Shown piece by piece: positions 1,827-55,125 of a DNA stretch of 64,000 nucleotides. The notes beneath the pieces were generated by a model. The model was given only the letters and a program-made list of their open reading frames with translations, had not been told where the DNA came from and ran no database searches. Source of the DNA: an uncultured Actinomycetota bacterium (lineage in GTDB: Bacteria > Actinomycetota > Acidimicrobiia > Spongiisociales > UBA5794). The position numbers were made by a program, and so were the translations under genes. The stretch spans positions 49,185 to 113,184 of the forward strand of contig CAVQRN010000002.1 of assembly GCA_963715255.1 (NCBI GenBank). Reading direction: 5' to 3'. The number at the start of each line of letters is the position of its first letter. The first letter of the stretch is position 1.

Positions 1827-3020
1827 ATGCGCATCGCCAATCGGATCGCCAACCTCGGAACCGAAACTGCCTTCGCGGTATCGGGCGAGGCCGCCGCATT
1901 CGCTGCCGAGGGGAATCGGGTCTACCCGTTCCACCTCGGCGACATCAACCTCCCAACCCCGTCGACCGTGGTCGAAGGAGCAACAAAGGCCATCGCAGAC
2001 GGCAAGACGGGCTACTGCCCGAACGCGGGGATCCCGCAGCTGCGCGAGGCGCTCGCTGCCGACGTCGCCGCGTCCCACAACACCGACTACACGGCTGAGA
2101 ACGTGGTCATGCAGCCCGGGGGGAAACCCACGATCGGCAAGTTCATCCTGACCATGATGAACCCGGGCGACGAAGTGCTCTATCCGAACCCCGGCTACCC
2201 GATCTACGAGTCCCAGATCGAGTTCAACGGCGGAGTCGCCGTCCCGTACGGGTACGTCGAAGGCACCGAGAACTTCGAGTTCGACTTCGACTCTATCGAG
2301 CGCGGTATCACCGACAAGACCCGCCTGTTGATCCTCAACGATCTCCAGAACCCGATGGGTGCCGAATGCTCGATCGAGGAGCATGAGAAACTCGCTGAAT
2401 TGGTCCGCAACCACAACCTGTATGTGCTCGCCGACGAGGCGTATTTCGACATGCGTTACTCGGGGAAGAGCACGTCGTTCGTCGAACAGCCGGGAATGGC
2501 AGAGCGCACCGTCGTGCTCTACACCTTCTCGAAGAAGTTCGCGATGACCGGATGGCGTCTGGGTGCGAGCATCGGTCCGAAAGAGATCGTCGATGTGATC
2601 GCCAAGATCAACGTCAACGACGAATCCTGCTCGAATCACTTCATCCAGTACGGCGCTCTCGCCGGACTCGAGGGTGACCAGAGTGAACCCCAGGCGATCC
2701 TCAACACACTCGAAGCACGGAGAGACGCAACCGCCAAAGGTCTGAACGCCATCGACGGGATCCACACCTTCACGCCGAACGCCACCTTCTACCTGTTCCC
2801 GAACGTCACCGAGTTGATGGCTCGCAAGGGCATGAGCAACTACGAGGAGTTCCGTCGCGCAGCACTCCACGCGACCGGGGTGTCGTTCACGTCACGGATC
2901 CACTTCGGCCGCGAACTCGAAGGCGAGCAGAACAAGTACATCCGTCTCGCCTACTCCGGTATCAACATCCCAGACATCGAAGAAGGCCTTGGTCTGCTGA
3001 AGGACTGGGCAGAGGCTTAG
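1827..3020 (+). CDS. PLP-dependent class I/II aminotransferase (aspartate aminotransferase-like)
   Basis: AAGGAG RBS upstream of the ATG at 1827. PLP-lysine motif SKKFAMTGWRLG. Typical N-terminal MRIANRIANLGTETAF. Confidence 0.85.
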   Translation: MRIANRIANLGTETAFAVSGEAAAFAAEGNRVYPFHLGDINLPTPSTVVEGATKAIADGKTGYCPNAGIPQLREALAADVAASHNTDYTAENVVMQPGGKPTIGKFILTMMNPGDEVLYPNPGYPIYESQIEFNGGVAVPYGYVEGTENFEFDFDSIERGITDKTRLLILNDLQNPMGAECSIEEHEKLAELVRNHNLYVLADEAYFDMRYSGKSTSFVEQPGMAERTVVLYTFSKKFAMTGWRLGASIGPKEIVDVIAKINVNDESCSNHFIQYGALAGLEGDQSEPQAILNTLEARRDATAKGLNAIDGIHTFTPNATFYLFPNVTELMARKGMSNYEEFRRAALHATGVSFTSRIHFGRELEGEQNKYIRLAYSGINIPDIEEGLGLLKDWAEA

Positions 3021-3021
3021 A

Positions 3022-3150
3022 AGTAGCTGAGTAGCTGAGTAACTGAGTAACCGAGTAGCTGAGCAACCGAGTAGCTGGGTTGCCGAGGAAGGTCGGGAAG
3101 CCTTCATTCTCCGCTACCCGGCTACTCGGCTACTCCGCTACCGGATTGCC
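3022..3150. repeat. tandem octamer repeat (GAGTAGCT/GAGTAACT/CGAGTAGC) followed by inverted copies (GCTACTCGGCTACTCCGCTACC); hairpin-forming intergenic element between convergent genes
   Basis: Direct copies lie at 3022-3080 and inverted copies at 3108-3148. The same family recurs at least 8 more times in the window. Confidence 0.8.
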
Positions 3151-10229: not shown

Positions 10230-10296
10230 TCGAGCTACGAGCTGCCGGCTACCGGCAGTCCCCACTCAGCTACTCAGCTACTCAGCTACTCAACCG
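10230..10296. repeat. octamer repeat array (GAGCTAC x2, CTACTCAG x3 plus a small palindrome CCGGCTACCGGCAG)
   Basis: The last repeat unit provides the TGA stop of the amidohydrolase gene. Confidence 0.75.
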
Positions 10297-11654
10297 ACGA
10301 GCCGCGCCGCGGCCATATGGTGCTTCTCGATCAAGACCGGCAGCTCAACACCGACCAGTTCTCCGTCCTTCACGACTGCCCGTCCATGCACGTAGTTCTG
10401 GTCGACACCAGTCGGCGCGACAAAGAGCACGGCGGCAACCGGATCGTGGAGCGCACCGGCATACTCCAAACGGTCGAGCGAGATGGCGATGAAGTCCGCT
10501 CCCTTTCCTGGCTCCAGCGAGCCGACATCGTCCCGCCCGAGGACCGCGGCCGAACCGCGGGTTGCGATCCGAAGTGCTTCTCGTGCCGTGAGCAACCGGC
10601 CGCCTTCGATCGACGGGGCGGCTGCCAGCCGCGCAAGCAGCATCGCCTGCCGGGCTTCGGCGATCAGGTGACTGCCATCGTTGCTCGCCGAGCCGTCCAC
10701 GCCGAGACCGAGTCGAACATTGGACGCCAAGTAGCGCCGGACCGGAGCGATGCCGGATGCGAGGCGCATGTTCGATGACGGACAGTGGGCTACTCCGGTC
10801 CCCGATTCGGAGAGTCTTTCAATCTCGGCGTCGTTGATGTAGATGCCGTGGGCATACCAAACGTCATTGCCAACCCATCCCAGGTCCTCCATGAGTTCGA
10901 CGGGGCGCCGCCCGAACGTCTCGATGCAGAACTGCTCCTCGTCGTGTGTCTCGGCGACGTGGGTGTGGAGATGGACGCCGTAGCGCCGGGCCAGTGCGGC
11001 GGATTCGCGCATCAGGCCCGCGGTCACGGAGAACGGTGAACACGGTGCGACGACGACGCGGGTCATGGCTCCGGGTGCCGGATCGTGGAACGCGTTGATC
11101 ACCCGTTCAGTGTCAAGAAGGATCGTCTCGTCGTCCTCAACCACCGAGTCGGGAGGCAGTCCCCCGTCGCTCTCACCGAGACTCATCGAACCTCTGGCGG
11201 CATGGAAACGCAGCCCAACCGCTGCTGCACCCGCGATCTGGTCGTCGAGGCTCGACCCATTCGGGAAGAGGTACTGGTGGTCAGACGAGGTCGTGCAGCC
11301 GGAGAGTGCCAATTCGGAGAGGGCGAGCTGTGTCGAGATTCTCACATCGTCCGGAGTGAGGCGTGCCCATATGGGATAGAGCGTGCGGAGCCAGTCGAAC
11401 AGGCCAACGTCCTGTGCGCCGGGCACGGCGCGGGTCAGCGTCTGATAGAAGTGATGGTGTGTGTTGATGAGTCCGGGAAGCACGACATGCCCGGAGAGGT
11501 CCACAACGTCGTCGGCCGTCTCGGGAAGCTCCGCGGTCGAGCCGACCTGTTCGATGAACCCGTCGACGGCGAAGAGGCCCCCGTCGCTGATCTCCGTTCC
11601 AGCGTCGTCCATGGTGGCGAGAACCTGCGCGTGCCGAACGAGAAGTGTGCTCAT
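10290..11654 (-). CDS. amidohydrolase superfamily (COG0402), guanine/8-oxoguanine deaminase-like
   Basis: HHHFYQT metal-binding motif and the remaining His/Asp ligands of the TIM-barrel amidohydrolase fold. Start MSTLLVRHAQ at 11654. Confidence 0.75.
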   Translation of the reverse strand: MSTLLVRHAQVLATMDDAGTEISDGGLFAVDGFIEQVGSTAELPETADDVVDLSGHVVLPGLINTHHHFYQTLTRAVPGAQDVGLFDWLRTLYPIWARLTPDDVRISTQLALSELALSGCTTSSDHQYLFPNGSSLDDQIAGAAAVGLRFHAARGSMSLGESDGGLPPDSVVEDDETILLDTERVINAFHDPAPGAMTRVVVAPCSPFSVTAGLMRESAALARRYGVHLHTHVAETHDEEQFCIETFGRRPVELMEDLGWVGNDVWYAHGIYINDAEIERLSESGTGVAHCPSSNMRLASGIAPVRRYLASNVRLGLGVDGSASNDGSHLIAEARQAMLLARLAAAPSIEGGRLLTAREALRIATRGSAAVLGRDDVGSLEPGKGADFIAISLDRLEYAGALHDPVAAVLFVAPTGVDQNYVHGRAVVKDGELVGVELPVLIEKHHMAAARLVG

Positions 11655-19143: not shown

Positions 19144-19269
19144 TGGTCCCATCATGGTCGATGACGCGGCGGTGCACGAGTAGGGGCCGAAGGTCGCAAC
19201 ACCGCATCTCTGTGGCAGCGTAGGAGTTGTTGAGTAGTGCGATTGCCCAGATCGGCTTACGATCGGTCC

Positions 19270-19600
19270 CCCCGGCCGCGTCTTCTTCCTCCCCCTCAGG
19301 GGGAGGTGCCGCCCGTAGGGCGGCCGAGGGGGTCAAAGAGTCCCGTTGTGCGAACCGCGAACCATACAACGGTCCCCTCGGCGTCTTGTTCTTCCTCCCC
19401 CTCAGGGGGAGGTGCCGCCCGCAGGGCGGCCGGAAGGGGGTCGAAGGGGTTCCGATTCGCGAATCGCGAACCATACAACGGTCCCCTCGGCCGTAGGCCG
19501 GGGGGACGCGGAGCGAAGCGACGCAGGGGGGCGTCTTCTTCTTCCTCCCCCTCAGGGGGAGGTGCCGCCCGCAAGGCGGCGGTGGGGGTCGGACCGTGAC
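19270..19600. repeat. imperfect tandem repeat (units about 105-145 bp, about 2.6 copies). Each unit carries two adjacent perfect GC-rich hairpins: CCTCCCCCTCAGGGGGAGG and GCCGCCCGYAGGGCGGC
   Basis: Three copies of TTCTTCCTCCCCCTCAGGGGGAGGTGCCGCCCG-AGGGCGGC start near 19281, 19389 and 19535. Two copies of CGCGAACCATACAACGGTCCCCTCGGC are interleaved. Sits in the divergent region between the dihydropyrimidinase and DUF222-HNH genes. Confidence 0.75.
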
Positions 19601-19787: not shown

Positions 19788-20849
19788 ATGGTGTTGATTC
19801 GTGAAGCCGACCGCCGGCAGGCGCCGCTCGCAGACGGCTGCCGGTCTCTCGCAGAGTGGGTGACGGGCCGTCTCGATGTTGCACCAGAGACGGCGAAGAC
19901 CTTGGTGTCGACGGCTCGGCGTCTCGAATCGCTCCCCACGGTCGAACACGCCACCGCCGTCGGGTCGATCAGCTTCGATCGGACCGTCGAGGCGGCCCGG
20001 ATCGCTCTCCCATCCGAAGACGCCACGATCGTCGACGAACTTGCCGTCTTCGACGTCGCTGCGATTCGGCGTCTCGTGTCGAACCGGCACCGCATGACCC
20101 GTGACACAGAGCGTGAAGTGTTCGAGACCCGCTATGTGGCGGTGCAGGCGAACCTGGACGAGTCGTCGTGGCGGGTCCACGGACAACTCCCCGCCACAGC
20201 CGGCAGATGCTTCGTTGACGCCCTCGACGCCAAAGCCGACCAGTTACCACCCGATCCGGACGGGGATCGCAGTCGGACGACCCGCTACGCCGATGCGTTG
20301 TGGGCCATCAGCGTCGACTCGCTCGCTGGTAGCGACGGCGCCACGGTCGAATCTGCGACACCGCTGTTGACCGTCTTCGTCGACGCCCACGATGCTGCCG
20401 GGACGAACGGTGAGACCGGCGTGATGATTGAAGCCGGACCCAGAGTCGGACCCGCAACGATCGAAGCGATCCTCTGCGACGGGGTCATCGAAGTCACCGG
20501 CCGAACACAAGACGGCACACCGGTGAATATGGGACGCCGCAGCCGCACCATCCCACCCAGGCTGAAACGCTTCGTTCTCGCCCGCGACGGCGGCGTGTGC
20601 ACCATTGCGGGCTGTGTCAGTAGGTACCGGCTCCAACCACACCACATCACCCCCTGGTCCCAAGGCGGCGCCACCGACGCCGACAACCTCACCACACTCT
20701 GCTGGTTCCACCACCACGTCGTCATCCACGGCCGAGGCTTCACCATCAACCCCTCATCCCCACCCCAACGCCGCCGACTCCGTCGACCATGGATCCACGC
20801 TCCACCGCCGCGGTCCGACTACGCGGGTGACATTCATGTTCACTACTAG
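19788..20849 (+). CDS. DUF222 plus HNH endonuclease domain protein (mycobacterial REP13E12-type); the N-terminus looks short or possibly frameshifted
   Basis: C-terminal HNH motif HHITPWSQGG...NLTTLCWFHH. DUF222-like central region. A 25-aa ORF (19719-19796) in another frame abuts the start. Confidence 0.7.
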   Translation: MVLIREADRRQAPLADGCRSLAEWVTGRLDVAPETAKTLVSTARRLESLPTVEHATAVGSISFDRTVEAARIALPSEDATIVDELAVFDVAAIRRLVSNRHRMTRDTEREVFETRYVAVQANLDESSWRVHGQLPATAGRCFVDALDAKADQLPPDPDGDRSRTTRYADALWAISVDSLAGSDGATVESATPLLTVFVDAHDAAGTNGETGVMIEAGPRVGPATIEAILCDGVIEVTGRTQDGTPVNMGRRSRTIPPRLKRFVLARDGGVCTIAGCVSRYRLQPHHITPWSQGGATDADNLTTLCWFHHHVVIHGRGFTINPSSPPQRRRLRRPWIHAPPPRSDYAGDIHVHY

Positions 20850-21051
20850 CACCCCTACCGGTCGCACCGACCCGGATTCCGCACAGGGCCTCACGGCCGC
20901 CGAACTCGATGATCTCATCTGGGATGTCGCCGTGGGAAGACCAACGCGCGTCGTGCTCGATACGGAGAGGAAGCGCGCCGCGTACTTCGCCGTGCACAAG
21001 CGGATCCAGGAGGCCGTAGCCAGGAGTCGCCGGTCCGCAGCACCTGGATAG
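20836..21051 (+). CDS. hypothetical small protein (72 aa)
   Basis: ORF MFTTSTPTGRTD...WDVAVGRPTRVVLDTERKRAAYFAVHKRIQEA, followed by a strong hairpin. No family assignment. Confidence 0.3.
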   Translation: MFTTSTPTGRTDPDSAQGLTAAELDDLIWDVAVGRPTRVVLDTERKRAAYFAVHKRIQEAVARSRRSAAPG

Positions 21052-21077
21052 CGACACTGATGCTGTCAAACACGAAG

Positions 21078-21103
21078 AAGGCCCGGTCAACGACCGGGCC
21101 TTC
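21078..21103. terminator. perfect 10-bp-stem hairpin AAGGCCCGGT-CAACG-ACCGGGCCTT
   Basis: Sits immediately 3' (on the minus strand) of the duplicated tmRNA 3' end, so it looks like the original ssrA terminator. It could also terminate the plus-strand small ORF. Confidence 0.5.
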
Positions 21104-21127
21104 GGTGGAGGTGGGGGGAATCGAACC
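21103..21127. repeat. 25-bp direct duplicate of the tmRNA 3' end (CGGTGGAGGTGGGGGGAATCGAACC)
   Basis: Identical to 21260-21284, the acceptor/T-arm end of ssrA, and 132 bp away from it. Confidence 0.75.
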
Positions 21128-21260
21128 TTCTCAACTCGCCGAAGACCCACCAGGACCCCACCAACCATCACAGCGCAAGAGAGCCGCGAGGCAGAAAAGG
21201 ACGAAGCACCACAACACGAGGTCGAGCCCGGGAAGGGCTCGACCGACGTCACGATCACGG

Positions 21261-21617
21261 CGGTGGAGGTGGGGGGAATCGAACCCCCGTCCCACGAGGT
21301 TTCAGCGTCGGCATCTCCGAGCGCAGCCGACAGCGAGCTTTCGGAACCTGAGAGACGCCGTCGGCAGTTTCTCCTGGGTCCTAGTCGGAATTGTCTTACC
21401 CCGCCGATCCCGACATCCCGGCGGGGGCATCCTGCATTGTTATGCCCGGATCCGGCGAGACAGGCACCCTCCGGTCGGACACGCTGCGTTAATTATGCAG
21501 CGAATGCGTAACTTTCGTTATTGGCACTTATGTTTGTTCCCGGCTCTTTAACGAGGCTCCGGGGACCTCGGCTCGCTTCCGGCGCCTCAACCCTCACGGT
21601 CGAAACCATGTCACCCC
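21261..21617 (-). ncRNA. ssrA: tmRNA (ssrA), about 357 nt
   Basis: Read on the minus strand: 5' GGGGGUGACAUGGUUUCGAC..., 3' ...GGACGGGGGUUCGAUUCCCCCCACCUCCACC. Internal tag reading frame GCC AAU AAC GAA AGU UAC GCA UUC GCU GCA UAA (ANNESYAFAA*). smpB lies 1.6 kb away. Confidence 0.85.
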
Positions 21618-21702
21618 CATTTCTGGGGAACACGCTTGGCGCGTTCATCACGCTCAAGAGTAGTCGTGCGATCCCGTCACCGCTTGCCCGTTTTCCCGCT
21701 AG

Positions 21703-22596: not shown

Positions 22597-23167
22597 GTGC
22601 GCTCCTCTTGGGACAATCGTTACCGGGAACGGTCGGCTCCGGTAGACCCTTCGGCGTTTGTCACCGTTGAACTCGCACCGCTTCTCGGCTCGCCCGGTCG
22701 GGCACTCGATCTCGCCGGAGGCGCAGGGAGACACGGCGTTTGGCTTGCGGAGCGTGGCTGGGAGACGACCATGATCGATACGTCGGAGGTCGCGATAGCA
22801 CTCGCCGCTGAGCGGGCAGGAGAGGCCGGCGTCGACGTCACACTCGTTCACAGCGACCTCACCGCCGCAACGCTCCCCGACGGCCCATGGGATCTCGTGC
22901 TCATCGTGCACTACCTCCAGAGAGACCTCTTCTCCCCGGCCATCGACACTCTGGCGGATGACGGCCTGATCGCGTTCCTCGGTCGCCACCGTTCGGAACC
23001 TGCAACGCCGGGAGCGACCATCCCTCCCCTACCTCCTCCAAGAGGGCGAGGCGCCGTCGCTCGTTGACGGTCTCCAGATCCTCCACTACGCCGAGGGCTG
23101 GTCGATCGAGGACCGGCACGAGGCAAGGGTGGTGGCCCGTAGACGGAGTAGCCGGGTAGCTGGGTAG
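22597..23167 (+). CDS. SAM-dependent methyltransferase, TehB-like; apparent frameshift near 22995-23030
   Basis: Class I MTase motif LDLAGGAGRHGVWLAERG. After ...LIAFLGRHRSEP the frame changes. The alternative frame gives a TehB-like C-terminus ...QEGEAPSLVDGLQILHYAEGWSIEDRHEARVVARRRSSRVAG*. Its last residues and TAG stop lie inside the octamer repeat. Confidence 0.6.
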
Positions 23168-23175
23168 CTGAGCAC
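23139..23175. repeat. octamer repeat array (GGAGTAGCCGGGTAGCTGGGTAGCTGAGC)
   Basis: Same family as 3022-3150. Encodes the C-terminal ...SRVAG* of the upstream gene. Confidence 0.7.
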
Positions 23176-23200: not shown

Positions 23201-23659
23201 CTATCTCCTGTGGCTCTTCGCCCGGTCCATCTCTCGCTTCTGTTGGCGTTCCACGAGCTTCTTCCGCTTGTCGTAGGTGTGACGGCCCCTGGCCAGGGCG
23301 ATCTCGATCTTCGCGATGCCGCGCACGAAGTAGATCTGGAGCGGAACAAGCGTGAGTCCCTGTTCGTTGATCTTGCCGGTGAGGCGATCGATCTCCCGCC
23401 GATGGAGCAACAACTTGCGTTTCCGCTCCGGGGCATGGCCGCCGCCGATCGCGAATGAGTACGGCGCGATGTGGGCGTTCTCGAGCCAGAGTTCCGAGCC
23501 CTGCAGCAACCCGTAGGCATCCTTGAGCTGCACCTGCCCCGCACGGAGGCTCTTCACCTCGGACCCGGTGAGCACCATCCCTGCCTCGAAGGTGTCGAGG
23601 ATCTCGTAGTTGTGTCGTGCGCGTCGGTTGGTTGCGACGACTTTGCGACCTTCAGTCAT
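23201..23659 (-). CDS. smpB: SsrA-binding protein
   Basis: Full-length SmpB (NRRARHNYEI...GSEVKSLR...) with a basic C-terminal tail. Confidence 0.9.
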   Translation of the reverse strand: MTEGRKVVATNRRARHNYEILDTFEAGMVLTGSEVKSLRAGQVQLKDAYGLLQGSELWLENAHIAPYSFAIGGGHAPERKRKLLLHRREIDRLTGKINEQGLTLVPLQIYFVRGIAKIEIALARGRHTYDKRKKLVERQQKREMDRAKSHRR

Positions 23660-26709: not shown

Positions 26710-26844
26710 GAAATCCCTATCGCGGCTTCGTAGTCCTACCCCACCCGCCAACGAGTCGCCAGGTTACCCGTAGACCCCGTATAGGAGGGGTATTGCGTGC
26801 GTGAAGAGCGGAGTGGGACAAGGGACTCGCGAGAGGTCTGGCGC

Positions 26845-26876
26845 CCTACTCGGCTACCGAGCTACCCAGCTACTTC
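26845..26876. repeat. octamer repeat array (CTACTCGG/CTACCGAG/CTACCCAG/CTACTTCC)
   Basis: Contains the prfB TAG stop and encodes its last residues ...EVAG*. Confidence 0.7.
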
Positions 26877-27969
26877 CCTCCGCCACTGCAGATAGCTGTC
26901 TATGAGGGCGTCCAGGTCTCCGTCGAGGACACCCTGGATGTTTCCTATCTCGCGGCCGGTACGAAGATCTTTGACCATCTGGTAGGGCTGGAGTACGTAG
27001 GAACGGATCTGGCGTCCCCAGCCGGCTTCGGTTTGGTCGCCGCGGATGGCGTCGACCTTCGCCTGCTGTTCGACACGGGCCCGATCCGCCAGTCGTGCGG
27101 CGAGGAGATGCATTGCCCTCACCCGGTTCTGGGTCTGAGACCGTTCGGCTTGACAACTGACAACGACACCGGTGGGCAGGTGCGTCAGCCTGACCGCCGA
27201 ATCCGTCTTGTTGATGTGCTGGCCGCCGGCACCCGACGCCCGGTATGTGTCGACCCTGAGATCCTCCGGGTTGATTTCGACCTCTTTGACGTCGACTTCC
27301 GGGATGACATCGACACCGGCGAATGCCGTGTGGCGACGAGCGGCCGAATCGAACGGACTGATCCGCACGAGCCGATGCACGCCGCGTTCGCTCTCGAAGA
27401 TTCCGTAGGCATGATCTCCCTTGATGGTGATCGTGGCCGACTTGATGCCCGCTTCCTCACCGACCTGGTACTCGTCCACTTCGAAGGAGAGCTCGGTTCG
27501 TTCGAGGTATCGCAGGTACATACGGAACAACATCTCCGCCCAATCCTGAGCATCGACGCCGCCGGCACCGGCATGAACCGACATGATTGCGGTCGAGTCG
27601 TCGTGAGGACCGAAGAAGAGCGTTTCGCGCTCGAGACGACTGAGCGTCGTTTCGGTTTCGCGCAGCTCCTTCATCGCGTCGTCGAGGCCCGAGGCATCGT
27701 CTTCTTCAAGGCCGAGTTCGATCAGCACCTCGGCGTCATCAAGTGCCTCGTCCAGGATCGCCACCTGCTCGATGGTACGTTCGTGCCGAGCGAGGGTTCG
27801 GGTCACCGCGAGTGCCCGATCCTGATCGTCCCATAAGCCAGGTTCGGAGACCTGCTGCCTCAGTTCGACGAGTGCCTGTTCTTTGCCTGCGACGTCAAAG
27901 GAACCTCCTGGCGTCGTCGAGCCGTGAGCGCAGGTCGTTCAGAAGTATGCGGAGGTCATTCGGTTCCAT
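26862..27969 (-). CDS. prfB: peptide chain release factor 2, expressed via programmed +1 ribosomal frameshift
   Basis: ORF0 (MEPNDLRILLNDLRSRLDDARRFL) ends at an in-frame UGA within CUU UGA C. The +1 frame continues DVAGKEQALVELRQQ... through SPF and GGQ motifs to 26862. Confidence 0.85.
27894..27900 (-). promoter_or_regulatory. RF2 autoregulatory +1 frameshift site CUU UGA C with an internal Shine-Dalgarno-like AGGAGG 3 nt upstream
   Basis: Read on the minus strand: GCC AGG AGG UUC CUU UGA CGU. This is the classic RF2 recoding cassette. Confidence 0.8.
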
Positions 27970-30867: not shown

Positions 30868-30916
30868 GGCGGCGAATACTACGGGGGCCGTTGGCTTGTT
30901 GAGCGAGTGTGAGATG

Positions 30917-30950
30917 GCGGAGTAGCCGAGTAGCTGAGTAGCCGAGTGGT
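30917..30950. repeat. octamer repeat array (GGAGTAGCCGAGTAGCTGAGTAGCCGAGTGG)
   Basis: Same family. Located between the secA start and the upstream gene's stop. Confidence 0.7.
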
Positions 30951-30966
30951 CGAACGAAGTGTCGCG

Positions 30967-31411: not shown

Positions 31412-31447
31412 CCTCGGCTACTCGGCTACTCGGCTACTCAGCTAGTC
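31412..31447. repeat. octamer repeat array (CTCGGCTACTCGGCTACTCGGCTACTCAGCTAG)
   Basis: Directly abuts the TGA stop of the response-regulator gene. Confidence 0.7.
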
Positions 31448-32096
31448 AATCCAGACTGATCAGGTCTTCCCGTACCGCGTACAGGACTGCCTCGTTCCTG
31501 GAGTGGAAACCGAGTTTGTCGAGGATGTTCCTGATGTGGTTCTTCACCGTGTTCTCGGAGATGAACAGGTCCGTGCCGATCTCGCGGCTCGTCTGTCCCT
31601 GTGCCACGAGTCCAAGGACCTCGATCTCACGCCCGGTCAACACCGGCTTCCTCGATTGCAGCAGCTCCTGGTGGCGGAGCAACTGCCGGGTCACATCGAG
31701 GAGCTTTCCTGCCATGTTCGGGGAAATGGCAGCCCCGCCGTTCTCAACAGCGTTGAGGGCTCCGACCAGGGCGTCGAACGGGGCGTCCTTCGTGACGTAT
31801 CCGCGAGCCCCGGCTTTGATGCCAACGAGGAGGTCCTCCTCCGATTCGCTCGCAGTGAGCAGAATGACGTGCGCTCCCGGAGCGACGGCGCTGATCTTCT
31901 CGACGACCTCGAGGCCCGAGATGCCGGGCATCAGGATGTCGAGCAGGACCAGATCCGGTTGATACTCCTCGGCAGCGGAGACTGCCCCTTCTGCGTCGCC
32001 TGACTGGGCAATGACCTCGAATCCGGCGTCTTTCAGTGCTGATGCCAGTCCTGCTCTGAACAGCGGCACATCGTCAACAATGAGCAGTCTCTTCAT
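31446..32096 (-). CDS. two-component response regulator, NarL/LuxR family
   Basis: REC domain (DD...D...K) plus a C-terminal LuxR-type HTH (LTGREIEVLGLVAQGQTSREIG...SENTVKNH). Confidence 0.85.
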   Translation of the reverse strand: MKRLLIVDDVPLFRAGLASALKDAGFEVIAQSGDAEGAVSAAEEYQPDLVLLDILMPGISGLEVVEKISAVAPGAHVILLTASESEEDLLVGIKAGARGYVTKDAPFDALVGALNAVENGGAAISPNMAGKLLDVTRQLLRHQELLQSRKPVLTGREIEVLGLVAQGQTSREIGTDLFISENTVKNHIRNILDKLGFHSRNEAVLYAVREDLISLD

Positions 32097-33385: not shown

Positions 33386-33471
33386 GCCCCCGACCGTAAA
33401 GGCAGAGTGGGACAGAATTCGTGAGATCAGATCGGTCACCGGCGAATGAGACCGGTGATCCGTTTTCAAAC

Positions 33472-33578
33472 AAGTAGCTGAGTAGCCGAGCAACCGAGTC
33501 GTCGCACGAGACTGATCCCGACAGGCAAGGTCCCCGAGTGGTCTCTGCTACTCCGCTACTCCGCTACTCCGCTACTCG
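33472..33578. repeat. octamer repeat: direct copies (33472-33510) and inverted copies CTACTCCG x3 (33546-33578), forming a long hairpin
   Basis: Directly abuts the TGA stop of ahcY. Confidence 0.75.
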
Positions 33579-33579
33579 A

Positions 33580-34827
33580 TCACGTTCCTTCTTCCCACGA
33601 TGTCAGGTAGCGGGCTTGTTCTTCTGTCAATGTCTCCAGTGACGCGCCCATTGCTTTGAGCTTGAGCCGAGCGACGGACTCGTCGAGCTCACGGGGCAGC
33701 GTGTACACATCGGGTGGGAGATCGCCGCCTACTTGGACAAGCCACTCTGCGGCGAGCGCCTGGTCGGCGAACGACATGTCCATCACATCGGCGGGGTGGC
33801 CCTCGGCTGCGCCCAGATTCACCAGCCGTCCCTCAGCCACGACGATGATTCGGCGCCCATCGTCCAGTTCGAACTCCTCGAGATTCTCCCTGATCTCGCG
33901 ACGAGCAACCGCCATCTGGCGAAGCCCGACCAGATCAAGTTCCACATCGAAGTGCCCGGCGTTCGCGATGAGAACGTTGTCCTTCATCACCAGGAAGTGC
34001 TCGGGTCGGAAGACGTGGATGCCGCCCGTCACCGTGAGGAAGACATCTCCAACCGGAGCCGCCTCGGCCGCCGTCATCACCCGGTAACCCTCCATCGCCG
34101 CCGAGAGTGCCCGAATCGGGTCGACCTCGACCACGACAACACTTGCCCCGAGGCCTGATGCACGGCGGGCGATACCCCATCCACAGTCACCGAAACCTGC
34201 GACGACCACGGTACGTCCGGCGAACAGGATATTCGAAGCCCTGAGAATCCCGTCGAGCGACGACTGTCCGGTTCCGTGCCGGTTGTCGAACAGATGTTTC
34301 GTTTCGGAGTCGTTCACGGCCACAACCGGGTAGCGAAGGACCCCCTCGGCGGCCATCGCTCGGAGGCGCAGCACGCCGGTGGTCGTCTCCTCGAGGCCTC
34401 CGAGGATCGGTTGCAGCTTCCGTTCACGATGCAGAACGGTCGTGGTGTCTGCCCCATCGTCGAACACGATGTGCGGCTCGGTGTCGAGGATTGCGTTGAT
34501 GTGTCGGTAGAAGGTATCGGGATCCTCACCGCGCACTGCGTACACGGGGATGCCGTCATCAACGAGCGCCGCAGCCACGTCATCCTGGGTCGAAAGAGGG
34601 TTCGAAGCGCACAGGGCCACCGATGCCCCACCGACGCGCAGCGTTTGCATCAGCGTCGCAGTCTCGGTCGTTACGTGCATGCAGGCAGCGACCCGGATAC
34701 CCTCCAGCGGTCGTTCGGCCTCGAACCGTTCCCGGATCGCAGCAAGGACCGGCATTCTGCGGTCGGCCCACGCGATTCGCCGATGCCCTTCGAATGCGAG
34801 TGACGAATCAGCGATGTCATAGTTCAT
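33580..34827 (-). CDS. ahcY: adenosylhomocysteinase
   Basis: Start MNYDIADSS. NAD-binding GFGDCGWG region and typical AdoHcyase substrate-domain motifs. Confidence 0.9.
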   Translation of the reverse strand: MNYDIADSSLAFEGHRRIAWADRRMPVLAAIRERFEAERPLEGIRVAACMHVTTETATLMQTLRVGGASVALCASNPLSTQDDVAAALVDDGIPVYAVRGEDPDTFYRHINAILDTEPHIVFDDGADTTTVLHRERKLQPILGGLEETTTGVLRLRAMAAEGVLRYPVVAVNDSETKHLFDNRHGTGQSSLDGILRASNILFAGRTVVVAGFGDCGWGIARRASGLGASVVVVEVDPIRALSAAMEGYRVMTAAEAAPVGDVFLTVTGGIHVFRPEHFLVMKDNVLIANAGHFDVELDLVGLRQMAVARREIRENLEEFELDDGRRIIVVAEGRLVNLGAAEGHPADVMDMSFADQALAAEWLVQVGGDLPPDVYTLPRELDESVARLKLKAMGASLETLTEEQARYLTSWEEGT

Positions 34828-53332: not shown

Positions 53333-55078
53333 GTGAAATCCGTTCTCATCGCGAACCGGGGCGAGATCGCCGTCCGCGTGATTCGCGCCGCTCACGATCT
53401 CGGTCTCCGTGCGATCGCCATCTACTCCGAATTGGACAGAGACGCCGTCCACGTCGACCTTGCCGATGAGGCGTGGAACGTCGGTCCGGCCCCATCGTCC
53501 AAGTCCTACCTCAATGTCGATCGGATTCTGGAAATCGCCCGCGAGTCAAGGGCCGATGCCATCCACCCCGGATACGGATTCCTCGCAGAGAATGCGGCCT
53601 TCGCCAGAGCGGTCACCGACGCAGGTCTGACGTGGGTCGGCCCCCCACCCGAGGCGATCGCCACCATGGGCGACAAGATCGCGTCCCGCGTCGCTGCCGT
53701 CAAGGCCGGTGTGGCCGCGGTTCCAGGGACGACCGAGCCACTCACGGATGTCTCCCAGGTCAAGGCCTTCGCAGACGAGCATGGTCTGCCGATCGCCATC
53801 AAGGCAGCCCACGGAGGAGGAGGCAAGGGACTCAAGGTTGTTCGTGAGAGCGGTGACCTCGATTCCGCTTACGAAGGGGCCCGGCGCGAGGCCGAAGCGT
53901 GGTTTGCCAATCCCGAGGTCTACGTCGAACGCTACCTCGACACGCCACGCCACATCGAAGCCCAGGTGATGTTCGATACTCACGGCAACGGTGTGTTCCT
54001 TGGCGAACGAGACTGCTCCCTCCAACGACGCCACCAGAAACTCATCGAAGAGACCCCTGCTCCGGGATTCTCCGACGGGCAGCGGGCCGAGCTCGGGCGA
54101 GCTGCCCTTGCCGTTGCGCGTGCCGCCGGATACGTGAATGCCGGCACGGTCGAGTTCCTGCTCGACACGAACGGTGACCTGTTCTTCCTCGAGATGAATA
54201 CGAGGATCCAGGTTGAGCACACGATCACAGAAGAAACAACCGGTGTCGATCTCGTCGTGGAACAGTTGCGCGTCGCCGCCGGTGAGATCCTCTCGTTCGA
54301 TTCGGTCGAACGGACCGGTCACGCGATCGAATTCCGGATCAACGCAGAGGACCCGTCCAATGGCTTCCTCCCCACACCAGGCAAGCTCTCGGCATACCGT
54401 GAACCGGCAGGACCCGGGATCCGCGTCGACAGCGGCGTCCGTCAGGGTTCGCGTATCTCCCAGTACTACGACAACCTCATCGCCAAACTCGTCGTCCGCG
54501 GGCGGGATCGTGAAGAAGCGATCCGCAGATCGATCCGGGCGCTGACCGAGTTCAAGATCGAAGGCGTTGAGACGACGATCCCCGCACACCTGGAGATTCT
54601 CCGGGGTCCCGACTTCGCCGCGGGCAACATCCACACCCGTCTCGTGGAAGATTCGATGGACTTCAGCCGGCTCGGCACGAAGACCTCACCTGCGATGCCG
54701 GAAGACGAGGAACTCCAGGAGCGTGAGATCACCGTCGAGGTGAGCGGTCGACGTTTCGAGGTCAAGTACTGGTCGCAGGTCATCGCATCGACGGGGTCGG
54801 GACAGCGCCCCGCGCCGCGACGCAAGGCACCGAAGCTCAGCAAGGAGCAGTCGGCCGGTGCCGGCGAGGGCATCGTGACATCGCCGATGCAGGGCACGAT
54901 CGTGAAGGTTCACCACTCGGCCGGTGACACCGTACACGCCGGCGATCCGGTGTGCGTGCTGGAAGCGATGAAGATGGAGAATGAGATCAAAGCGCCGACC
55001 GACGGTGACATCGTGGATCTCCGAGTCCGGCCGGGCGACACGGTGAGCACGGGCGCGGTGCTGATGGTGATCAGGTAG
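53333..55078 (+). CDS. acyl-CoA carboxylase alpha subunit (biotin carboxylase plus biotin carboxyl carrier domain)
   Basis: ATP-grasp biotin carboxylase motifs. C-terminal biotinyl-Lys motif EAMKMEN. Confidence 0.9.
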   Translation: MKSVLIANRGEIAVRVIRAAHDLGLRAIAIYSELDRDAVHVDLADEAWNVGPAPSSKSYLNVDRILEIARESRADAIHPGYGFLAENAAFARAVTDAGLTWVGPPPEAIATMGDKIASRVAAVKAGVAAVPGTTEPLTDVSQVKAFADEHGLPIAIKAAHGGGGKGLKVVRESGDLDSAYEGARREAEAWFANPEVYVERYLDTPRHIEAQVMFDTHGNGVFLGERDCSLQRRHQKLIEETPAPGFSDGQRAELGRAALAVARAAGYVNAGTVEFLLDTNGDLFFLEMNTRIQVEHTITEETTGVDLVVEQLRVAAGEILSFDSVERTGHAIEFRINAEDPSNGFLPTPGKLSAYREPAGPGIRVDSGVRQGSRISQYYDNLIAKLVVRGRDREEAIRRSIRALTEFKIEGVETTIPAHLEILRGPDFAAGNIHTRLVEDSMDFSRLGTKTSPAMPEDEELQEREITVEVSGRRFEVKYWSQVIASTGSGQRPAPRRKAPKLSKEQSAGAGEGIVTSPMQGTIVKVHHSAGDTVHAGDPVCVLEAMKMENEIKAPTDGDIVDLRVRPGDTVSTGAVLMVIR

Positions 55079-55122
55079 CCGAGTAGCCGAGTAGCCGAGC
55101 AGCTGAGCAGCTGAGCAGCTGG
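55079..55122. repeat. octamer repeat array (GTAGCCGA x3, GCAGCTGA x3) filling the whole 47-bp gap between convergent genes
   Basis: The first unit contains the TAG stop of the carboxylase alpha gene. Confidence 0.75.
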
Positions 55123-55125
55123 GTG

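Follow-up and report, generated by a model that had tools for sequence, protein, structure and literature searches.

A 158-bp gene-less insert between duplicated tmRNA 3' ends in an uncultured Actinomycetota bacterium: a probable miniature, non-autonomous integrative element

In a stretch of 64,000 nucleotides from an uncultured Actinomycetota bacterium of the Acidimicrobiia (contig CAVQRN010000002.1, positions 49,185 to 113,184; hereafter the window), the gene for transfer-messenger RNA (tmRNA), ssrA, is followed by a 158-bp insert that is made up of a 133-bp interior and one extra copy of the last 25 bp of the gene. We propose that this insert is probably a miniature, non-autonomous element flanked by attachment (att) sites and similar to a cis-mobilizable element (CIME), which arose through site-specific recombination at the tmRNA T-loop, spreads horizontally and is lost again between its repeats. 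Among known systems, it would then rank as a very small form of CIME or island remnant. Related loci are referred to by handles (L001 and so on), and the parts of the locus, given in window coordinates, are as follows.

21261..21618, minus strand: ssrA, the tmRNA gene, intact, with tag peptide ANNESYAFAA (Rfam RF00023 and ARAGORN)
21261..21285, minus strand: proximal core copy, attL-type (exact 25-mer)
21128..21260, minus strand: 133-bp gene-less interior of the mini-insert, missing from empty-site alleles
21220..21244, minus strand: terminator-like hairpin carried by the insert, with a 10-bp perfect stem and a 5-nt loop (fold prediction)
21128..21135, minus strand: arm motif adjoining the distal core, GTTGAGAA in the window and GCGGAGAA in the family consensus (position in the family)
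21103..21127, minus strand: distal core copy of attR type, representing the original ssrA 3' end after its displacement (exact 25-mer)
21067..21103, minus strand: native ssrA intrinsic terminator (hairpin 21077-21103, followed by its tail), with a 12-bp perfect stem, a 3-nt loop and a TTCGTGTTTG tail (terminator scan)

The tmRNA gene that carries the insert is complete. The Rfam model RF00023 matches it over its full length (184.6 bits, E 1e-73, model positions 1-374), ARAGORN calls it at 21262-21618 with the tag ANNESYAFAA, and between the window and the empty-site allele L216 the tmRNA is 100% identical in sequence, which means that the end of the gene has been restored by sequence from the insert side. 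On the plus strand the 25-bp core reads CGGTGGAGGTGGGGGGAATCGAACC, and two exact copies of it lie in the 64 kb, in direct orientation, as a preliminary description of this DNA had recognised; that description placed the distal copy correctly at 21103-21127 but set the proximal one at 21260-21284 instead of 21261-21285, and accordingly counted 132 bp between them where the spacer (21128-21260) is 133 bp. A third copy was not found in the 64 kb with up to three mismatches allowed, and 100 shuffles yielded none. Both copies are intact as well as identical, their designation as attL and attR being one made at the level of sequence, and the proximal copy comprises the T-loop, the 3' strand of the T-stem, the 3' acceptor strand and the ACC+G of the functional tmRNA. 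Read in the direction of the tmRNA, the order is therefore tmRNA with core copy 1, the 133-bp spacer (21260 to 21128), core copy 2 and the native hairpin.

That the insert is a discrete unit is seen from alleles without it. With SmpB (23201-23659, minus strand) as query we collected 80 related loci, in which all close relatives are Acidimicrobiia metagenome-assembled genomes, and same-species contigs were found through exact-protein look-ups. In the nearest species (L001; nucleotide identity 94-95%, and 87% at four-fold sites) the hairpin and flank that in the window follow the second core come directly after the tmRNA end, and homologous hairpins stand at the tmRNA end in L002, L004 and L014, with a different hairpin there in L008. 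Two same-species contigs that are 99.5% identical to the window, L216 and L223, have a single gap in the ssrA interval, of exactly 158 bp; the remaining differences are scattered single-nucleotide polymorphisms (SNPs) and a 1-bp indel at 22977, together with small indels in the DUF222-HNH gene of L223. L225 and L226 are also empty, with the tmRNA directly on the native hairpin, and in L225, L226 and L001, too, what is missing relative to the window is one stretch of exactly 158 bp. The flank after the distal core is the same as that after the single core in L001, L216, L223, L225 and L226. The complete unit is present in L224, of the same species, where 4 of its 133 positions differ as SNPs (flanks, ~0.8%), while L217 holds the start of the unit and L218 ends exactly at the core. 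The contig ends of L217 and L218 correspond to window positions 21256-21262, so that independent short-read assemblies stop exactly at the tmRNA 3' core or overrun it by a few bases; such breaks are expected where occupied and empty alleles coexist in the sampled populations. Attempts to reach further junctions through flanking proteins gave no record for the DUF222 protein, and for a thioredoxin-like protein a contig that ended before ssrA.

The feature in the window is an insertion, or conversely the product of a precise loss elsewhere, of 133 bp plus one core. Since the empty sites are exact and the tmRNA is identical, 158 bp have been inserted (or precisely lost), the native 3' end and terminator have been displaced and the gene end has been regenerated. 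The earlier reading of the distal 25-mer and its hairpin as the original 3' end and terminator of ssrA is borne out by the direct junctions in L216, L223, L225, L226 and L001, but the suggestion that the locus is an empty att site with tandem cores is wrong, because the true empty site carries one core.

No open reading frame (ORF) was found in the 133-bp interior, which has no coding capacity. The insert lacks terminal inverted repeats, the only inverted repeats being the two hairpins, neither of which joins the ends of the insert, and the interior has no further copy in the window, nor in any locus at a distance from ssrA. Both hairpins had been noticed before, but their dimensions change: the one following the distal copy, given as a 10-bp hairpin at 21078-21103, has 12 bp and spans 21077-21103, and the one within the gap, given a 9-bp stem, has a stem of 10 bp and a 5-nt loop at 21220-21244. 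The native hairpin (fold -25 kcal/mol, z -5.5) is flagged in the terminator scan and lies 158 bp downstream of its place in the empty-site loci L001, L002, L004 and L014, where it abuts the tmRNA end. The insert hairpin begins 19 nt past the mature tmRNA end, and its tail, UCGUGUUG, is weak, with 4 U in 8 nt; the scan left it unflagged though the fold is stable. An Rfam E-value search of 20950-21330 returned the tmRNA only, plus a chance-level permuted-tmRNA match (E 0.21), and RNAalifold gave no supported structure beyond the first hairpin, the covariation term being positive, that is unfavourable, and the predicted pairs falling on invariant columns. The arm motif next to the distal core is presumed to be recombinase-side (P-arm) sequence. 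Just past the insert hairpin, 21 nt of the spacer (21202-21222) are 71% identical to tmRNA positions 21280-21300, immediately before the core, and L012 has a perfect CTTCGATTCC at the matching place; this similarity may go back to an earlier tmRNA-end copy that once lay within the unit, or may be chance.

Units of this kind recur at ssrA elsewhere in the Acidimicrobiia. We searched 47 related genome loci and the window for a second core, up to 7-10 kb downstream and with spacing unconstrained, and beyond the window found it in L012 (158 bp spacing) and in L040 (148 bp, the second copy slightly decayed), while L009 has a truncated copy of a unit from which the distal core is absent. A metagenome scan for two tmRNA-end copies, which accepted spacings of 149-179 bp only, returned 13 loci with units of 149-166 bp, which brings the range over genomes and metagenomes to 148-166 bp. 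The window unit belongs to a subfamily of 158-160 bp together with L012 (whose unit is that of L084, with L092 near-identical), L081 (whose unit is that of L091) and L087; in blastn comparisons its members are colinear across the whole interior and 71-83% identical to one another, the window interior being 83% identical to L081, 77% to L012 and 76% to L087. L093 is a distant relative at 62%, and five further sets are unalignable with the subfamily (L082 unit 1; L082 unit 2 with L088; L083 with L040; L086; L089).

Even the unalignable units follow a shared plan of a hairpin after the tmRNA end, a spacer of ~90 nt and, often, GCGGAGAA at the distal core. A hairpin with a GC-rich stem of 7-13 bp stands 2-22 nt past the tmRNA end in all 11 non-identical metagenome units, in the window and in L040. 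The unit hairpins carry a TCGT-type tail resembling native terminators, and within the subfamily the stem shows compensatory double changes (GTCGAG/CTCGAC in the window, GTTGAG/CTCAAC in L081). In all family members the identity block of the two core copies starts at GGTTCGA, the start of the T-loop, and 5' of it the copies differ, reading GGGACGGG in the tmRNA and GCGGAGAA or GTTGAGAA in the unit; judged from these boundaries, the crossover would lie in the T-loop, the canonical sublocation in tmRNA genes. The octamer GCGGAGAA adjoins the distal core at an identical position in L081, L087, L093, L082 (both units), L085 and L088, and does so in 4 of 7 mutually unalignable groups. A second candidate motif, CGGCTC at positions 66-79 in 4 groups, was no more frequent than in shuffles and was dropped. 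In L089 and L090 both core copies are followed, past the terminator hairpin, by a motif that resembles an inverted T-arm (GGTGGGAATCGAGC, GGTGGAATCGA; the reverse complement of TCGATTCCCACC).

The units also come and go whole. L082 has two different units in tandem, of 157 and 149 bp, and its sister L085, 99.7% identical, is without exactly one 149-bp unit; L087 has a full unit followed by a second copy cut at ~108 nt, and L009 retains the cut copy alone. Units are thus gained and lost as exact modules in at least two unrelated hosts.

The similarity of these units between distant hosts is higher than that of the DNA around them. At four-fold sites of four flanking genes the window host is 44-47% identical to the hosts of L012, L091 and L087, which is saturation, and even the constrained 130 nt upstream of the tmRNA are 62-65% identical with many gaps in the same host pairs, against a shuffled baseline of 50%. 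The L081 unit is 83% identical to that of the window but 77% and 75% identical to those of its own relatives L087 and L012, although the hosts of L081, L087 and L012 are 83-92% identical to one another in the promoter region. Close relatives of the carriers are without the unit (L216, L223 and L001 for the window, L011 for L012). Vertical descent would therefore need strong constraint on a sequence that is dispensable within the species, and the unit would also have to have been lost precisely, and independently, many times. It is simpler to suppose that the ~158-bp unit was acquired horizontally.

In the mechanism that we propose, an attP-type site, composed of an arm ending in GCGGAGAA, then GGTTCGATTCCCCCCACCTCCACC, then the hairpin, would have been exchanged with ssrA at the T-loop; a free site of this type outside ssrA would read GCGGAGAA joined to GGTTCGAYTCCCC. 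The exchange would have left the tmRNA unchanged, brought in a new terminator-like hairpin and moved the original 3' end and the native terminator 158 bp downstream. This site-specific architecture is suggested, by analogy, by the T-loop start of the identity block, the element-side motif at the distal repeat and the tandem arrays. The unit would be incapable of self-movement, since only the two arms are present. It would have entered the present species horizontally from an L091-like lineage, for which the most likely, if weakly supported, route is homologous recombination of incoming chromosomal DNA, in which the invariant last ~85 nt of ssrA would provide the left arm and the 25-bp core the right one; alternatively, it could have been mobilised in trans or have accreted together with an integrase-bearing element. 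The unit would be lost when the 25-bp repeats recombine or slip against each other, or when it is excised. Across all these clades the final ~85 nt of ssrA vary at just one position, 21295, which lies 10 nt outside the core; the window clade has G there, and every putative donor clade has A. Within the species A is found in the occupied contig L217 only, as the sole tmRNA SNP, and because an attP x attB exchange cannot carry that base, it hints at homologous recombination.

We searched for the machinery and the parent that such an origin implies. At ssrA, 48 related genomes, ~25 metagenome contigs and collections of phages, plasmids and viral contigs yielded neither an occupied full-length island nor an integrase or a parent; instead, the ~158-bp unit recurs, colinear, in other clades. 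A tyrosine integrase, sought with a crude regular expression for the recombinase motif, was absent from the window and from the related non-viral loci, and no serine recombinase was seen among the neighbour genes of the unit, which were checked only via Pfam; for L081 and the window, Pfam identified the genes downstream of the unit as housekeeping genes. When the region, or the interior alone, was compared by blastn with phages and plasmids, the result was a generic match to the tmRNA core or nothing, and scans of viral contigs with the left arm, and with arm plus core, gave 0 matches. Looser scans of viral contigs produced candidates that we rejected, those for the arm motif with a short core being phage tRNA genes whose T-arm happens to read GAAGGTTCGATTCC, and those for the core only being phage-borne tmRNA genes of unrelated phyla. 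No free attP site was found, and the tandem units of L082 and L087 adjoin no integrase-bearing element.

Several observations weigh against the interpretation as a mobile, att-flanked element. With no recombinase, full-length parent or free attP, the case for a site-specific origin is one of architecture and analogy, and a circle as small as 158 bp would recombine poorly. Both the window (GTTGAGAA) and L012 (TTGTCGAA) have degenerate forms of the arm motif. In L040, L083, L087, L088 and L089 the repeat runs 20-108 nt past the tmRNA end into the terminator region, so that the left arm of a unit can be a paralogue of the host's own terminator; this is unpredicted by a plain attP x attB model, though it may reflect host flank captured by a progenitor, or nested or truncated units. 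Four metagenome units lie exactly at the 149-bp lower limit of the scan, and the real size distribution is therefore cut off. High similarity across clades could result from purifying selection without horizontal transfer. As for the base at 21295, both the occupied window and L224 have G there, and a single SNP at a G.U/A-U wobble position could recur by mutation. The verdict is limited, finally, by the small number of independent members and by a transfer mechanism that we infer.

The explanation closest to the preliminary description is that of a private scar, in which a prophage or island of normal size once sat at ssrA and was almost entirely deleted, leaving attL, attR and 133 bp that are inert and inherited vertically. 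An att-type duplication and a displaced terminator are what such a history predicts, it is well documented that islands decay into att-flanked remnants without an integrase (PMC5704250; PMC3146451), and the family as a whole may ultimately have begun in this way. For the window itself we nevertheless regard it as unlikely, because the supposed remnant has no private deletion junction: the 133 bp are colinear end to end with the units of L012, L081 and L087, at 76-83% identity, between hosts that are saturated at neutral sites. Clean empty sites are found in the closest relatives and sister strains, no full-length island lies within 7-10 kb of ssrA in 47 related genomes, and a deletion junction common to all homologues, combined with incongruence between host and unit trees, has largely been seen already. 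The view of a nearly fully deleted island thus gives way to that of a recurring ~158-bp unit.

Alternatively, the unit could be a module that benefits its host and is kept by selection, inherited vertically with frequent loss, and that acts as an alternative 3' trailer and terminator or masks attB against phages and integrative and conjugative elements (ICEs) that target tmRNA genes. The interior is conserved far beyond neutral sites, a stable hairpin with covarying stems is in the terminator position of every unit, and occupation does swap the sequence 3' of the core. Against this, the unit is dispensable, being absent in strains that are 99.5% identical and in most relatives, and unit similarities are incongruent with host relationships; moreover, tandem arrays indicate that occupied sites still accept units, and the viral-contig scans gave no phage using the ssrA site. 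We consider a role of this kind improbable.

Without any mobile element, the ssrA 3' end and the flank downstream of it could have been duplicated locally in tandem or by slippage, which would suit the extended repeats in L040, L083, L087, L088 and L089 and the 71% similarity of the 21-nt spacer stretch to the tmRNA segment upstream of the core. Such an origin is very improbable, however, since the window interior has no similarity to the native flank, the GCGGAGAA junction is met again in groups that cannot be aligned, no GCGGAGAA motif stands ~130 nt downstream in the native flank, and the interior is absent downstream of the empty sites in L001, L216, L223, L225 and L226. An assembly artefact, a repeat-induced mis-join at the tmRNA end to which the short-read contigs stopping exactly at the core (L217, L218) might point, can practically be dismissed, given that L224, from another sample, independently assembles the complete unit with 4 SNPs, that related units come from different projects (L012, L084, L092, L081, L091), and that the contig breaks are what occupied and empty alleles would give if they coexist.

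Taking the insert as an att-flanked mobile element, we compared it with known systems. Islands in tmRNA genes in general were reportedly treated by Williams in 2002 and 2003. Like other integrative elements of tRNA and tmRNA genes, the present insert is bounded by an intact gene and a direct repeat of its 3' end, with empty sites in relatives; unlike them, it has no integrase of its own and an interior without ORFs. In a functional analogy with miniature inverted-repeat transposable elements (MITEs), it is a miniature without genes in which only the cis-acting ends of a mobile element are kept, and its presence or absence is polymorphic, but there are no terminal inverted repeats, the flanking repeat is 25 bp of the target gene and not a target-site duplication of 2-10 bp, and one fixed target per genome takes the place of dispersed copies.

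The islands in ssrA of Dehalococcoides have a 20-bp repeat with a motif upstream of each repeat, insertion at the T-loop and tandem arrays, and their integrase-less members have been interpreted as cis-mobilizable elements (McMurdie et al. 2011; PMC3146451). The present units likewise repeat the last 20-25 nt of ssrA, are inserted at the T-loop, have a motif 5' of the distal repeat that is unalignable to ssrA, and form tandem arrays, and in both cases there are members without an integration module. Those islands, however, are ~10-30 kb long with a serine integrase (DsiB) module or cargo, whereas here there are 133 bp and no recombinase was found nearby. For CIMEs, the definition and the model of accretion are set out in PMC5704250, in which the CIMEs related to ICESt1 and to ICEs as well as IMEs (integrative and mobilizable elements) are treated in summary form (Pavlovic et al. 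2004; Bellanger et al. 2011). The present unit resembles them in that attL and attR flank it at a conserved gene's 3' end, in lacking an integrase and transfer genes, in forming tandem arrays like those of accretion, and in being present or absent at the level of strains. To our knowledge, the CIMEs described so far are kilobases long, carry genes and are each recognisable as a decayed ICE or IME. In contrast to CIMEs, the units described here are 148-166 bp long and ORF-less, the same small unit is found across deeply diverged hosts, and mobilisation in cis is putative; no ICE, IME or prophage parent could be identified by a match in the phage, plasmid and viral-contig searches.

More tentatively, and with somewhat less than even confidence, we suggest that the units make up an Acidimicrobiia family of ~150-165-bp "att-only" elements, a counterpart of MITEs for site-specific recombinases that would consist of two attachment-site arms and a target-gene terminator, use the single ssrA site, accumulate in tandem arrays and pass from one species to another. 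Such elements might borrow an integrase in trans, or be self-portable by homologous recombination into genomes with the same tmRNA 3' end. If this were true, they would represent a minimal class of non-autonomous integrative element and a recombinase-free way for inserts to spread, in which the att duplication gives homology to every naive site. Duplicated ends of tRNA and tmRNA genes are routinely taken for scars of lost islands, and here such a duplication marks a conserved, recurrent and polymorphic unit, whose similarity between distant hosts exceeds that of their neutral DNA and even of their tmRNA promoters. The case also bears on practice, as island-finding tools use repeat pairs as island boundaries and metagenome contigs break at the ssrA site. 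In addition, the 3' trailer and terminator of an essential RNA are exchanged here while the mature tmRNA is unaltered.

Outside the insert, the following features were recorded in the window.

19788..20849, plus strand: DUF222-HNH gene, a syntenic neighbour outside the insert (Pfam DUF222 57 bits and HNH 32 bits)
20836..21051, plus strand: conserved 71-aa ORF, convergent with ssrA, in the flank and not in the insert (no Pfam match)
3013-3087, 3108-3146, 10264-10302, 23138-23172, 26848-26886, 30904-30954, 31412-31450, 33456-33506, 33542-33588, 55065-55123: (GAGTAGCY)n sites

The DUF222-HNH gene next to the insert, whose two domains Pfam confirms as described earlier, is intact and ends at 20849, 254 bp from the start of the distal core at 21103. 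Bibb and Hatfull reportedly found in 2002 that REP13E12 (DUF222-HNH) repeats are the attachment sites of phiRv1 in Mycobacterium tuberculosis, and a link of the duplication to such repeats had been suggested. The closeness of a DUF222-HNH gene is indeed shared with that system; unlike there, the duplicated sequence is the tmRNA end, outside the DUF222 gene, and no prophage or serine integrase is present. A DUF222-HNH gene also lies downstream of ssrA in L012, which is occupied, and in L014 and L226, which are empty, and since it occupies the same place with and without the unit, it belongs to the conserved neighbourhood; the proposed link therefore falls away. Positions 20160-20830 of the gene are ~9-10% diverged between the window and L223 and L224, where the remaining DNA is at least 99.5% identical, and this locally hypervariable patch possibly reflects gene conversion between paralogues. 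The 71-aa ORF has 10 homologues at 63-100% identity, also beside empty sites, and in this clade it always adjoins ssrA and the DUF222-HNH gene.

At 19264-19582, immediately upstream of the DUF222-HNH gene, a 63-nt repeat occurs three times (76-100% identical), each repeat with two GC-rich hairpins, CCTCCCCCTCAGGGGGAGG and GCCGCCCGYAGGGCGGC, in the manner of REP elements. The tandem octamers (GAGTAGCY)n and their complement are found at 10 or more sites, apparently intergenic, and the array at ~26815-26886 behaves as a variable-number repeat, as it shows several indels against the 99%-identical contig L214. Other short tandem repeats lie past the ssrA flank in L093, (GTATTCCG)n, and in L015, (TCGTGTC)n. 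Finally, at 22977-22978, inside a Methyltransf_25 gene (131 aa in the sisters), the window is longer by one base than each of the seven sister contigs with sequence there; this is a frameshift or a sequencing error.

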